Assembly: GCA_947470025.1 (NCBI GenBank)
Contig: CANIRU010000003.1
Coordinates: 1 to 61,446, forward strand
Reading direction: 5' to 3'
DNA: 61,446 bases
Origin: Chloroflexota bacterium
GTDB taxonomy: Bacteria; Chloroflexota; Dehalococcoidia; UBA2979
Shown here: piece by piece, positions 53,555 to 60,372 of the stretch
How positions within the stretch are numbered: the stretch's first letter is position 1
How the letters are laid out: each line of letters starts with the position of its first letter
The notes under the pieces: model-generated
Told to the model about the DNA's origin: nothing
Databases searched by the model: none
What the model saw: only the letters and a program-made list of their open reading frames with translations
Program-made: the position numbers and the translations under genes

Positions 53555-54472
53555 TCAGCGCACCCGCTGCTGCGCCAGGTCCACGACCTGCTCTGCGATC
53601 AGCCCCAGCATCGCGAACGCGCGGTCGTGCACACGCGTCGCCTCGAGATCCGGCGCGTTGTACCAGTCGAGCACCACATAGCTCGCACCGAGCTCCTGCA
53701 GACCGCGCAGGTCTTCGTGGATCTGCTCCAGTGTGCCGGTCCCCGGTGCCCGGTCGGGTGTCGTGATCGGCTCCGCCGTCACCTGCATCCGGATGCGCGG
53801 CACCAGCGCCGGGACCGGCATGCCGAGACGGCTCGCCTCGGCCTGTAGTGCTGGCAACCGCTCGCGCAGCGCCGCGACCGACTGGTTGATCGGATGCCAG
53901 CCGGCCCCGAAGCGCACCGCGCGCTTGATCGCGCCGTCGCTCGTGCCGCCCACCCAGATCGGCGGATGCGGCGACTGACTGGTCCTCATCACCGACACCT
54001 GCTCGAAGTTGATGTGCGCACCCTGGTAGGTCACCGCATCGTCGCCCGTCCACAGCGCGCGGATCGCGTCGAGCGCCTCGTTCGACCATGCGCCTCGACG
54101 GTGGTGCGGGACGCCGAGCGCGGCGAACTCGTCAGCAGCGTGCCCGATCCCCACACCGAAGATCACCCGCCCGCCACTGAGCCGATCGAGGTTCGCGACC
54201 TCGCGTGCCAGCAGAATCGGGTGCCGGTACGGCAGCACGATGACCGTGGTGCCGAGATCGACGCGCGTCGTCTGGCCGGCAAGCCACGCCAGCGTCATCA
54301 GCGGATCGAAGTAGGGCTCCGGGTATCGCAGCGAGACGGTCGGCGTGATCGCCACGTGATCTGCGATGAAGATGCCGTGATAGCCGAGGCCCTCGACGAC
54401 CTGGCCCCATCGACCGATCGACTCCGGGGACACGCCCGGACCGAAGTTCAGCAGGTTGATACCGACCTTCAT
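53555..54472 (-). CDS. LLM-class F420-dependent oxidoreductase (Rv2161c-like)
   Basis: IADHVA, DPLMTLAWLAG, LDRLSGGRVIFGVG and PPIWVGG motifs. Confidence 0.9.
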   Translation of the reverse strand: MKVGINLLNFGPGVSPESIGRWGQVVEGLGYHGIFIADHVAITPTVSLRYPEPYFDPLMTLAWLAGQTTRVDLGTTVIVLPYRHPILLAREVANLDRLSGGRVIFGVGIGHAADEFAALGVPHHRRGAWSNEALDAIRALWTGDDAVTYQGAHINFEQVSVMRTSQSPHPPIWVGGTSDGAIKRAVRFGAGWHPINQSVAALRERLPALQAEASRLGMPVPALVPRIRMQVTAEPITTPDRAPGTGTLEQIHEDLRGLQELGASYVVLDWYNAPDLEATRVHDRAFAMLGLIAEQVVDLAQQRVR

Positions 54473-54639
54473 CGGTGATCTCCAAATCGGCGCGGCGTGT
54501 GCTTGTGGCGGGAGTGCGTGGGTGTCGAACCCACCCGGGACCGCGACGCGGCCCCGCAACGGTTTTGAAGACCGCGGACATCACCGGACACCATCCACTC
54601 CCGCCCGGATGATAGCGGGAGGCGGGACCCTGGGGTGCG

Positions 54640-55914
54640 CTACGGCTGGGCGACGAAGCTCATCATGCCGCCCGCGTAGGTCAGCGTGAGCGCGCTCCCG
54701 TTCTGCGTGTACTGCTGCACTTTGGCGAGCTGCGCGAGGTACGTCGTTTCCATGCTCTCGAACGGCGGGCAGGCGCGGAGCGTGCCGCCCTGCATCGTGA
54801 CGGTGAGCGCGCTGCCCGCCGTTGTGTACTTGCCGAAGTACGAATTGCAGTCCGTCGAGGTGCCGGCCGAGCCGTCCGCGTTCAACGACAGCACCGTGTC
54901 GCCGGCGGTCCTCGGCATCACGGTCGTGGCGCCCTCGACCGTCGAGGTCCAGCGCCACTTACCCACGATCGAGGTCGGCGCCGGGGACGGGGGCACGGCG
55001 ACCAGCACCAGCGCGACGTTGCGCGTCGCGGCCGCGTCGGTCAGCACGCGGACGGCGGTGTCCGTGGTGAAGCGGAGCACACCGTCGATGCGGATCTCCG
55101 CACGCACGGTGTACGTGCGGTTCGCGACGATGTCCGCGGGGCGGTAGAACAGCCGGAACGACAGCGGGATCTGCTCGCCGTTCGTGCGGATCGTCTGTGA
55201 CGCCAGCGGGCTCGCGGCGACGTCCGCCTTCGACGTGTCGAGGAGGTCGACGCGCACCATCGCGCCCACGGGCAGCGCGATCTTCTCGAGGTAGCCCACC
55301 GTGCCGATCACGGTATTGATCGAGGTCCCGGTGCAGCCCTCGTGCGTGGTGACGCCGTTCTGCTGGATCGTGGCGTCGGCGCCCTTGCTCAGGTAGAGGA
55401 TCGATCCGTCCGCGCTGACGTGACGTGTGCCGGATCCGGAGATCGTCTGCTTCAGCTCCACCGCGTGGCCCTCGAGTTCCAGGATCACGCGGTCGCCCGG
55501 CACCTGCTGCACGTGCGCGATGAACGAGCGCCCCGCGGCGCATGCGTACTGCACGATGTTCACGGCGTACGGGCTGCGGTCACCGCAGAGCACGAAGAAC
55601 GAGCTGTTCGCGCGCAGCACCGGGAAGCTCGCATTCGCGAACGCGGGCGCGCCCGCCGCGTACAGCCGCGCCGTCCCGTTGTCGTTCGCCACCAGCGACA
55701 CCGCCTCGCACCCGGCGAGGGCGAGCGAGGCATCGACCTCCGCCGCGGGGGCGTCGCGTGTCACGTTCAGTAGCGCGATCGTCGGTGTGGTGGGCACGGT
55801 GCCCGTGATCAGCGGCGCTGGCGCGCTCGGCGGCACGGTCTGCGCCCGCGCCACCCTCCCGGAGAGCGCAAACATCGTCGCCACCAGTGCCACGATCACG
55901 ATGTATGCGCGCAT
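54640..55914 (-). CDS. Secreted multidomain protein: unnamed N-domain, MliC-like, YbaY-like and META/HslJ domains
   Basis: Signal peptide (ARA-Q). YAC...LKQTISGSGTRH...LSKGADA...C (MliC-like); GTVGYLEKIALP...LLDTSKAD...YTVRAEI (YbaY-like); STDCNSYFG.Y...GTLRAC (META). Confidence 0.75.
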   Translation of the reverse strand: MRAYIVIVALVATMFALSGRVARAQTVPPSAPAPLITGTVPTTPTIALLNVTRDAPAAEVDASLALAGCEAVSLVANDNGTARLYAAGAPAFANASFPVLRANSSFFVLCGDRSPYAVNIVQYACAAGRSFIAHVQQVPGDRVILELEGHAVELKQTISGSGTRHVSADGSILYLSKGADATIQQNGVTTHEGCTGTSINTVIGTVGYLEKIALPVGAMVRVDLLDTSKADVAASPLASQTIRTNGEQIPLSFRLFYRPADIVANRTYTVRAEIRIDGVLRFTTDTAVRVLTDAAATRNVALVLVAVPPSPAPTSIVGKWRWTSTVEGATTVMPRTAGDTVLSLNADGSAGTSTDCNSYFGKYTTAGSALTVTMQGGTLRACPPFESMETTYLAQLAKVQQYTQNGSALTLTYAGGMMSFVAQP

Positions 55915-56144
55915 CTCGGTACTCCCTCGCTCAGGCTCGATTCTGCACGCGCTCTCCCGTGCCGTCTCGCCACTCACCGGCGACCTGCAGCGATTGACAC
56001 CACACTGCAACCCAGCCTTCACGGCCAAAACTGGTCCCTGCTGACCCAACGATCGAGTCACCCTCGTGGTTCCCGCGCGGTTCCGCCGGGCTTGCCTCGG
56101 CGCGGCGGGACGCACAGACTGGTCGAGGAAGCAGGAGCATCGCC

Positions 56145-56660
56145 GTGAGCATGGGTGGCCCCACCGACGAGGATCGCGCGAGCGTCTCGCCAGAGAACCT
56201 GGCGAAGATGGAGAAGTTCGTCGCCAACTTCGCGGAGAAGTCCGGCTCCTTCCTGCACCCCCAGCGCGAAATCACCGACTTCCTGGTCATCGGCCTCGCG
56301 AAGAACATCGAGGAAGTCGGCCGTCCGCTCTGCCCGTGCATGTTCTTCGAGGACAAGCAGGCAGAGGTCGAGAAGAAGTTCTGGATCTGTCCGTGCGAGG
56401 AGATGCAGCGGTGGAAGTACTGCCACTGACTGCTTTTCACCGATGCGGAAGGTCTTCCCATCACCGAATACCTGCCAGAGGACCACGAAGGCCGCGAGGC
56501 CTACGGAGATCGTCCTGACCCCGACCCCTCGAAGGGCCGTGCCCTGACGCGCCTCGAGGAGAAGCAGGGCCGCTCCGTAAACAAGGGCATCCGCGCCGAT
56601 GGCGCCGCGGGCTCCGGTAACGACGACCCTCCGCAGATCATCCCCCTCGGCGGCGGCTAG
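56145..56660 (+). CDS. ftrC: Ferredoxin-thioredoxin reductase catalytic subunit-like protein, predicted selenoprotein (Sec95 encoded by TGA 56427-56429), 171 aa
   Basis: Motifs LCPC, ICPC and YCH-TGA match the FTR CPC/CPC/CHC signature. The frame continues LLFTDAEGLPITEYLPEDHEGRE... to TAG at 56658-56660. GTG start follows AGGAG. Confidence 0.85.
56430..56462 (+). promoter_or_regulatory. Bacterial SECIS-like element
   Basis: Hairpin GAUG-(C)-GGAAG-GU-CUUCC-CAUC at 56442-56462, starting 12 nt after the UGA, with a 5' bulge and a GGUC apex. Confidence 0.75.
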
Positions 56661-56734
56661 CCCTCGGACGGTTCGAGGTGCGACGGCGCGCGGGAGCATC
56701 CTCACCGCGACGAGTCTCGTCGCGGTGGCAACGC

Positions 56735-57086
56735 GGGGCGGCCCATCCCCCTGCCCCCTTCCCTGTGCGGGAAGGGGGATGAATGGCGAGGACTCCGCCC
56801 TCGCGCTCCCACCGAAACGAGCATGCTTCGCGCCTCGGTTCCCCCGATCGCACAGCCTCACCCTGCCCTCTCCCCCTCGAAGGGGCGCGGTTTTGATGAG
56901 AGCGCCCAGCTCGCGATCGGAACTACCCCTCGGCAGCGACATCTCCATGCGGCGGTGCGAATCCCTCGCACCGACCCAACGCAGCCACATCGAGTTCCGC
57001 CGGGAGTGTGAGGGGCGCAGCTCCTCACACTTGGTTCTCTTCTTCTGACCCCTCCCGCGCCGGGAGGGGTAGGGGTGGGCCGCCCC
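56735..57086 (+). repeat. Composite inverted-REP element, copy B
   Basis: Left unit ggggcggcccatccccctgcccccttccc-tgtgc-gggaagggggatga, an internal cctcaccctgccctctcccc unit, and the 93-nt core at 56993-57085. Confidence 0.9.
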
Positions 57087-57172
57087 ACACGCCACCTCGA
57101 CAGGGCTCGCGGCGCGGACGGCGCTCCCGCTCCTGCGAGGCAATCCTCGACCTCCGGCCGCGTGGACAAGCA

Positions 57173-57200
57173 GAAGGGGCGGCCTTGCGGCCGCCCCTTC
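57173..57200 (-). terminator. trxA terminator
   Basis: gaaggggcggcc-ttgc-ggccgccccttc, 12-bp stem with GCAA loop on the minus strand. Confidence 0.75.
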
Positions 57201-57223
57201 GTGTGCTGCAGTCTCGGACGAGA

Positions 57224-57556
57224 CTAGGCGGTCGCGAGCGCCGACTCGAGGTGCTTCGCCAGGTCGCTCTTCGGGCGGAAGCCCACGACCTGACCGACCT
57301 GCTGCCCACCCTTGAAGATGAGGAGCGTCGGGATCGAGCGGATGCCGTACTTGCCGGAGACCGCCGGGTTCTCGTCCGTGTTCAGCTTCACGAACTTCAC
57401 GCGGCCGTCGTAGTCGTTCGAGAGCTCCTCGACGACCGGGGCGACCATGCGGCACGGGCCGCACCACGGCGCCCAGAAGTCCACGAGGACCGGGGTGTCG
57501 CTGTTCAGGACGTCCGCTTCAAACGTCGCGTCCGAGGTGTCCGTAGGGTGAGCCAT
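57224..57556 (-). CDS. trxA: Thioredoxin
   Basis: [19 protein letters not shown] and IRSIPTL motifs; 110 aa. Confidence 0.97.
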
Positions 57557-57761: not shown

Positions 57762-57813
57762 GCCGGTCCGCCGCCCTCTCGATGGAGTGCTTGAGCCGGA
57801 GACGAGGTGCCAC

Positions 57814-58149
57814 ATGGCAGACGCCAACGACCAGCTCATCGCCCGCCTCCGCCGCATCGAGGGCCAGGTGCGTGGCATCGCCAAGATGCTCGACGACGAG
57901 CGTTCCTGTGAGGACGTGGTGACGCAGCTGATGGCAGTGCGCTCCAGCATCGACACCGTCGGCGCGGTCGTCCTCGACAGCCACCTCGCCGGGTGCGTGT
58001 CCGAACGCAGCGCGGAGCAGCAGATCGAGGCGCTCCGGGACGCGATGCGACTCTGGTGGCGCTTCGCCCCCGCGGCGGGCGGCGTCGGCGCGGATCCTGA
58101 CACCGTTGGCGCCCAGTCCCCGCTGCCGATGCCCGGCGCGACCCGCTAG
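57814..58149 (+). CDS. csoR: CsoR/RcnR-family metal-sensitive transcriptional repressor
   Basis: RLRRIEGQVRGI..M....C.DV..QL.AV, then H-L-x-x-C: the Cys/His/Cys ligand set of CsoR. Confidence 0.85.
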   Translation: MADANDQLIARLRRIEGQVRGIAKMLDDERSCEDVVTQLMAVRSSIDTVGAVVLDSHLAGCVSERSAEQQIEALRDAMRLWWRFAPAAGGVGADPDTVGAQSPLPMPGATR

Positions 58150-60107: not shown

Positions 60108-60308
60108 CGCGGGAGGGGTTCAGAAGGAAGAGAACCAACTGTGAGGAGCCGCGCCCCTCATGCTCTCGGCGGAATCGTGCGTTTCTAGAATGCGATATCC
60201 GAGCGTGGGCGAAGCCGCACGATCCGGACCGAGAGCCCGACGGGCACAGCCCCTCGGATCTCATCCCCCTTCCCGCGCAGGGAAGGGGGCAGGGGGATGG
60301 GCCGCCCC
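60108..60308 (-). repeat. Composite REP element, copy C (reverse orientation, one end truncated)
   Basis: The reverse complement of 60261-60308 matches the copy B left unit at all but one base; 60108-60175 is a diverged core. Confidence 0.88.
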
Positions 60309-60372
60309 ACGCTGGCACCTCGAGCGCCCTTGCCACGTCGACGCTTCGCCCGCTCCGCCTCGGCAGCGGCGC

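Follow-up and report, generated by a model that had tools for sequence, protein, structure and literature searches.

A predicted single-selenocysteine ferredoxin-thioredoxin reductase in Dehalococcoidia

The locus and its reading frame

The stretch of DNA analysed here (the window, 61,446 nucleotides in full) belongs to contig CANIRU010000003.1 of a metagenome-assembled Chloroflexota genome (GCA_947470025.1, in the following G000), which consists of 152 contigs and is 80% complete. Among its genes we find one for a homologue of the catalytic subunit of ferredoxin-thioredoxin reductase (FTR), which is interrupted by an in-frame TGA and accompanied by genes for tRNA-Sec, an envelope protein, a thioredoxin and a metal-sensitive repressor (Table 1). 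The start codon of the FTR gene lies at an aligned position common to the starts of its homologues. Up to the TGA the product reads VSMGGPTDEDR...PLCPCMFFEDKQAEVEKKFWICPCEEMQRWKYCH and contains, in this order, a CPC motif (residues 63 and 65), a second CPC motif (residues 82 and 84) and the residues KYCH, which directly precede the TGA. The frame then runs on for 76 sense codons to a TAG at 56658-56660, and with the TGA taken as selenocysteine (Sec, U) the product comprises 171 residues. The first redox site of this protein, C65, is a Cys and not a Sec.

The product scores 78.9 bits against the Pfam model PF02943 (FeThRed_B; cut-off 22), and it is the only PF02943 protein encoded in G000, with 73.3 bits in the search of the whole genome. 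Its phmmer alignment with the catalytic chain of the Synechocystis enzyme (1dj7_A) is ungapped, query residue n corresponding to chain residue n-8, so that C63, C65, C82, C84, C93 and U95 are the equivalents of Cys55, Cys57, Cys74, Cys76, Cys85 and Cys87. The spacing CPC-x16-CPC-x8-CHC is identical, with a UGA in place of Cys at the sixth position. A first-pass annotation, made from the letters of the window, had already placed the TGA at the last Cys of the FTR signature CHC, in a frame running on for 76 codons to a TAG, and had used the Synechocystis numbering for the residues involved; the coordinates agree with ours, and the ungapped alignment to 1dj7_A proves the numbering correct.

Table 1. 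Features of the FTR locus in the window
Feature	Coordinates	Strand	Remarks
tRNA-Sec gene (selC)	54506..54602	-	anticodon TCA; Rfam RF01852 71.9 bits, gathering score 47; ARAGORN call
Predicted envelope protein, 424 aa	54640-55914	-	MliC-like, YscW-like and META domains (PF09864, PF09619, PF03724)
Shine-Dalgarno-like AGGAG	56133..56137	+	7 nt 5' of GTG 56145; sequence read
FTR catalytic-subunit homologue, predicted to contain Sec, complete CDS	56145..56660	+	GTG start, U95, TAG stop; 171 aa
First CPC motif, TGC CCG TGC	56331..56339	+	C63, Cys55-equivalent cluster ligand; C65, Cys57-equivalent surface redox Cys
In-frame UGA, predicted to be read as selenocysteine U95	56427..56429	+	Cys87 equivalent of the CHC motif
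bSECIS-type hairpin GAUG-(C bulge 56446)-GGAA [GGUC loop 56451-56454] UUCC-CAUC	56442..56462	+	starts 12 nt past the UGA
Thioredoxin (WCGPC), convergent with FTR	57224..57556	-	PF00085 116.6 bits; start uncertain, ORF open to 57697
CsoR/RcnR-family metal-sensitive repressor, divergent from trx	57787..58149	+	PF02583 91.4 bits

The tRNA-Sec gene lies 1.5 kb upstream of the FTR gene, with the envelope-protein gene between the two. Proximity of tRNA-Sec to the FTR gene is a trait of the window's own subclade: at a distance of up to about 2.4 kb it is also found in L034 (741-837), L040 (441-537), L041 (4792-4888), L043 (522-618) and L071 (6156-6253), and in three of these (L034, L040, L043) a gap of just about 100 nt (roughly 90-130) separates the divergent tRNA gene from the FTR start. 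On the other side, the thioredoxin and the CsoR/RcnR-type repressor genes form a small module beside the FTR gene; among the 94 listed loci with the UGA-containing FTR gene, a convergent thioredoxin gene occurs within 2.5 kb in 14 and a CsoR-family repressor gene in 11. Translations of open reading frames at about 56700-57050 and 60110-60340 share GGPSPCPLPCAGRGM, which points to a repeated intergenic element with one copy directly behind the FTR gene and another near 60.2 kb. The variable subunit of classical FTR, said in the first-pass annotation to be missing from the vicinity, is likewise without a match across the 80%-complete genome when searched with PF02941, the Synechococcus control being positive.

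Reading through the UGA

Searching 5.8 billion proteins returned 2229 relatives of the FTR protein. The full-length ones (about 150 aa) have a Cys at position 95, continue past it as LLFxxxEGLPITEYLPEDHEGREIYGxxxDPxPxKGRALGRLEEKQGR and keep a strong similarity over some 55 residues beyond the position of the UGA. Cys95 is nearly invariant in an alignment of 80 homologues, and past the UGA position L97, F98, P105, T107, L110, P111, H114, E115, G116, G121, D125, P128 and G131 are invariant, so that the predicted alignment of a Cys to the TGA, with similarity continuing downstream, held. Two clusters of 94-aa proteins (P0050 with 67 members, and P0072) end exactly at H94; on the contigs of both cluster representatives (L023 and L022) a TGA follows and then the same conserved frame. 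L023 is 98% identical to the window over the 94 residues before this TGA, and the same TGA is present in the near-identical L097, in the genome G290 of the same genus and in about 90 further species genomes, all independent assemblies.

A SECIS element behind the UGA had been named beforehand as a check on the Sec reading, and a conserved, covarying hairpin of SECIS type is indeed found there. Its eight proposed pairs were evaluated in 89 TGA-form genes, which represent 72 distinct rows: 84.7% of the cells are paired compared to 76.5% after shuffling, and the covariation score is 0.191 compared to 0.084, neither value being reached in any of 500 shuffles. These shuffles ignore relatedness, an issue that is addressed by sliding the 3' partner by one to three columns, which leaves at most 59.5% paired, as well as by the contrast to the Cys forms described below. 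Base exchanges on both sides are seen, for example, at pair 19-33 (GC in 40, UG in 20 and CG in 7 rows) and at pair 23-30 (AU in 49 and CG in 6 rows). Within the class, TGA and Cys forms both encode E/D-G-L-P-I at this site; the TGA forms, however, do so with GAA (43/46), GGT (41/46) and CTT (41/46), whereas the Cys forms mostly use GAG, GGC or GGG, and CTG (GGT in 4/43, CTT in 3/43). The Cys forms reach 3.30 of the eight pairs on average and the TGA forms 7.37 (Mann-Whitney p = 1.7e-16). The window has a GC content of 68.1%, and in eight neighbouring genes GAA accounts for 9% of the Glu, GGT for 14% of the Gly and CTT for 1% of the Leu codons; the codons that make up the hairpin are ones seldom used in this genome. 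The codon contrast between TGA and Cys forms means that the RNA structure is selected for only in genes with the UGA, as is characteristic of a SECIS element. Folding of the 106-nt region past the UGA is no better than that of shuffled sequence (z = -0.34), so that it is the comparative data, and not thermodynamics, that speak for the hairpin. An Rfam search over 54300-57300 matched no SECIS family, its sole match being the tRNA-Sec.

Besides tRNA-Sec, the genome encodes SelB (314 bits) and SelD (346 bits), both above the curated cut-offs. Of selA only a C-terminal fragment (52 bits) is seen, at the start of contig C148, where the contig truncates the gene; it is complete in G290 (541 bits) and in five other genomes with the UGA-containing FTR gene, with scores of 515-545 bits across these six. 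The set of selA, selB, selC and selD, which the first-pass annotation had proposed to look for, is thus present in the genus. The Cys homologues, the hairpin and the Sec machinery all support the earlier reading of the motif as C-H-U with Sec95, and we consider it very likely that the gene is a functional selenoprotein gene for a stand-alone [4Fe-4S] ferredoxin-dependent thioredoxin (disulfide) reductase, in which the UGA is translated as Sec. Judged from these sequence comparisons, Sec would be incorporated at U95.

Three other explanations of the UGA have to be weighed. The source is a fragmented metagenome-assembled genome (152 contigs, 80% complete), in which a true TGC or TGT codon could have been altered by an assembly or sequencing error; the same TGA stands, however, in the independent L023, L097 and G290 as well as in dozens of other species, and it comes with the hairpin codons specific for TGA forms, which makes the probability of such an error negligible. 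The UGA could also be a true stop, leaving a 94-aa truncated FTR fragment and a decaying frame downstream, that is, a pseudogene or a truncated gene. Public gene calls do give products of 92-94 aa; Sec insertion is usually inefficient, and some truncated product is likely to be made as well. A decaying frame is nevertheless hard to reconcile with the approximately 55 downstream codons, which in at least 94 genomes stay in frame and are strongly constrained by purifying selection, or with a hairpin that is conserved only when the TGA is present, and the 94-aa product would be left without one half of the redox pair. We regard a true stop as very improbable.

Recoding of UGA to Cys has been described in a few bacteria, and here SelB might deliver a tRNA that resembles tRNA-Sec but carries Cys. 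Such a system would look alike with respect to the SECIS hairpin and SelB, and Cys is the ancestral residue at the UGA site. It would, however, have no use for selD, nor for selA, of which the fragment is found here and the complete gene in the genus: both are needed only for Sec, and their retention renders UGA-to-Cys recoding unlikely. The tRNA, moreover, matches the Rfam model of tRNA-Sec over its full length, and recoding to Cys would bring no obvious benefit, since a simple change from TGA to TGC, as made by L241 (see below), gives Cys. We assign this explanation, too, a very small probability.

The truncation of the FTR gene by standard gene callers was correctly anticipated in the first-pass annotation. 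Records at NCBI, JGI and ENA list the CH-U products as proteins of 92-102 aa, with MGE3858074.1, MFA7249125.1 and MEI7925268.1 as examples of fragments of 92-94 aa. As it is the fragment that is listed, a whole selenoprotein subfamily is missing from the proteomes and from the NCBI selenoprotein models. The single-Sec FTR gene is real, widespread and systematically mis-annotated.

Distribution, evolution and proposed function of the CH-U form

One genome per prokaryotic species was scanned for the pattern KYCH-TGA-[LMI]-L-F, which gave at least 119 loci. About 25 of them, from unrelated taxa (Flavobacteriales, Bacillota and others), match the pattern by chance and were set aside; among the matches listed, true FTR-like CH-U genes are found in at least 94 species genomes, nearly all of them Dehalococcoidia or Chloroflexota MAGs. 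Outside the Chloroflexota the form is seen in two Candidatus Entotheonella MAGs (L055 and L099), which have hairpin variants of their own. The CPC of the first motif is kept in all 92 readable TGA-form genes listed and also in all 61 of the class sample. This sample, an even selection of 401 genomes from the class of the window, contains an FTR-like gene in 104 genomes; the 105 copies divide into 61 CH-U and 44 CH-C forms, and CH-U carriers make up about 15% of the genomes sampled. A conserved insert of approximately 14 residues (...KDENGNWPEGLYLPREEE...) lies between the first and the second Cys motif in 29 of the 44 Cys forms; this subgroup corresponds to L181-L212 and L243-L247 and belongs mainly to family f16.

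A maximum-likelihood tree was calculated from the 105 proteins of the class sample with the Sec/Cys column masked; the short alignment (only 125 columns) keeps its support values modest. The tree needs four changes between Sec and Cys, compared to 33.8 for shuffled labels. A large Sec clade, in which the window is found, consists of 54 Sec rows with a single Cys row nested among them. This nested form, L241 (G058:C14:34241-34981), has a TGC codon and still keeps the full hairpin (TCG GAA GGT CTT CCG), so that it appears to be a very recent reversion from Sec to Cys. Six further Sec rows (L185, L186, L192, L196, L197 and L201) are placed among Cys forms; this second Sec clade, to which L024, L130 and L136 also belong, reads ULLFVNGDGLP and has the hairpin GGGGAC-GGG-CUCCCC. 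Its placement among Cys forms together with the different hairpin suggests that this clade gained Sec independently at the same site. Four residues past the Sec, most Sec forms have a Cys (U-L-L-F-C), the Cys forms and the second Sec clade have Val, and the window, L023 and L097 have Thr (T99, 56439-56441).

With respect to evolution, the two Sec clades with their different hairpins make a compact and clean example of Sec being gained more than once. With respect to mechanism, of the two positions of the FTR redox pair Sec occupies just the one on the cluster side. In FTR, the residue at this position has two tasks: it is a ligand of a cluster iron in the one-electron intermediate, and it also resolves the mixed disulfide. 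Owing to this dual role, the subfamily offers natural Cys/Sec pairs for the question of what selenium does beside an iron-sulfur cluster, and the revertant L241 represents a natural control pair for biochemistry.

The fold of the protein is that of FTR catalytic subunits. An AF2 model calculated from the 80-sequence alignment (pLDDT 87.6, pTM 0.82) is confident for about residues 10-150, including the C-terminal extension, and its best Foldseek matches are the FTR catalytic chains 7BZK, 2PUK and 1DJ7 with an rmsd of 1.0 Å over 86-89 residues (probability 1.00 for 7bzk_A and 1dj7_A). Structures underlying the established FTR mechanism are available (Dai et al. 2007, as cited in PMC2398784), and by analogy the following steps can be proposed for the Sec form. 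For the recoding of the UGA to selenocysteine, the hairpin would be bound by SelB in complex with Sec-tRNA(Sec). In the folded protein C63, C82, C84 and C93 would hold the [4Fe-4S] cluster, while C65 and U95 would form a selenenylsulfide beside it. A first electron, delivered by ferredoxin, would open the C65-U95 bond, and the U95 selenolate would bind a cluster iron; C65 would meanwhile attack the disulfide of a thioredoxin, which is probably the one encoded by the neighbouring trx gene. A second electron would release U95, which would then resolve the mixed disulfide between C65 and thioredoxin. Selenium would in this way serve both as a transient cluster ligand and as the resolving nucleophile. 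Ferredoxin as the presumed donor and thioredoxin as the presumed substrate are suggested by what is known of the family and by gene adjacency, the product of the convergent trx gene being the probable substrate. To our knowledge, cluster-selenolate chemistry with a direct Fe-Se(Sec) bond has not yet been characterised in any enzyme of the FTR family.

How thioredoxin is otherwise reduced in these organisms differs between genomes. In G000 no NADPH-thioredoxin reductase was found, the best match to TIGR01292 scoring 50.6 bits against a cut-off of 343, which 13 of 14 control genomes exceeded; similarly, the 93%-complete G290 of the same genus has no thioredoxin-reductase-like gene at E <= 1e-50. 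At this threshold such a gene is present in 368 of the 401 class genomes, and it is absent in G000, G290 and some other genomes with Sec-FTR. A class-wide replacement of NADPH-thioredoxin reductase by Sec-FTR was considered and is not supported by these counts, and as most genomes with Sec-FTR have a thioredoxin-reductase-like gene, any claim of replacement has to be limited to the genus. There, with no NADPH-thioredoxin reductase found, thioredoxin may be reduced mainly by Sec-FTR. Going further, we can only tentatively raise the possibility that in this genus Sec-FTR is the sole thioredoxin reductase, that it works via an Fe-Se(Sec) intermediate on the [4Fe-4S] cluster, and that Sec was gained at least twice within Dehalococcoidia with different hairpins. 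If this were true, thiol-redox homeostasis of the genus would depend on selenium, and the repeated gain of Sec would speak for selenium having a specific catalytic benefit, confined to the cluster-side position.

Comparison with known systems

Sec-containing homologues of FTR were first reported in 2008 from reads of the GOS data set (Zhang and Gladyshev, PMC2398784); the FtrB reads concerned are JCVI_READ_1093012271142 and JCVI_READ_841845, and the corresponding NCBIfam model is NF041072. Later reviews (PMC9312934, PMC13188914) list Sec-FTR with a CxU motif, the 2026 review giving two Sec residues and NF041072. Like the protein of the window, FtrB of NF041072 belongs to the FTR catalytic-subunit fold and family (PF02943/COG4802), carries Sec in place of redox-active Cys beside the [4Fe-4S] cluster, including the Cys87-equivalent position, and is a predicted bacterial selenoprotein known from sequence alone. 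It is, however, short (about 104 aa) and of the form CPU...CPC...CIU, both redox Cys being replaced by Sec and the His by Ile. The protein of the window, in contrast, has a Cys at the first redox site, a CH-U motif and some 55 additional conserved residues at the C-terminus; according to the tree, it acquired its Sec within Dehalococcoidia from ancestors with Cys. Membership in NF041072 was rejected, as the score is 45.1 bits against a cut-off of 160 and there is one Sec instead of two. The score, the Cys at the first site, the CH dipeptide and the long C-terminus together mark a separate single-Sec subfamily close to the classical FTR catalytic subunit.

Whether the Sec variant is already catalogued, which the first-pass annotation had left open, can thus be answered in part: Sec-FTR has been published since 2008 and has its own model, but this covers the short subfamily with two Sec residues. 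Our literature search found no paper describing the single-Sec subfamily, although BSepDB (PMC13326102) could include it; the BSepDB paper names Dehalococcoidia as selenoprotein-rich, FTR being absent from its text.

The classical FTR catalytic subunits (1DJ7, 2PVG, 2PUK, 7BZK) share with the protein of the window the same CPC-x16-CPC-x8-CHC arrangement with one-to-one residue numbering, a core identity of 38-41% and a superposition at an rmsd of 1.0 Å. The protein of the window differs from them by Sec at position 87, a longer conserved C-terminus and a genome in which no PF02941 was found; its host is a bacterium of the Dehalococcoidia type, whereas the classical enzymes are those of cyanobacteria and chloroplasts. 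FTR-like catalytic cores without a variable subunit are known from anaerobic non-phototrophs, namely in stand-alone ferredoxin:disulfide reductases (FDR) such as that of Methanosarcina acetivorans (4TPU) and in the glutaredoxin-FDR fusion of Desulfotalea (7PWE). Both match the AF2 model structurally, though far more weakly (22-25% identity, TM about 0.4), and unlike the protein of the window they are all-Cys and possess additional rubredoxin or glutaredoxin domains.

At the RNA level the hairpin of the window resembles the SECIS element of E. coli fdhF: both lie closely behind the UGA, have GGUC as the apical loop and show one bulged base on the 5' side of the stem. In the window, however, the distance between UGA and loop is one codon (3 nt) longer, the bulged base is C instead of U, and the stem is a different one. 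The FTR of the window is to be seen as a single-Sec variant of a kind of selenoprotein known since 2008, and not as a new selenoprotein family.
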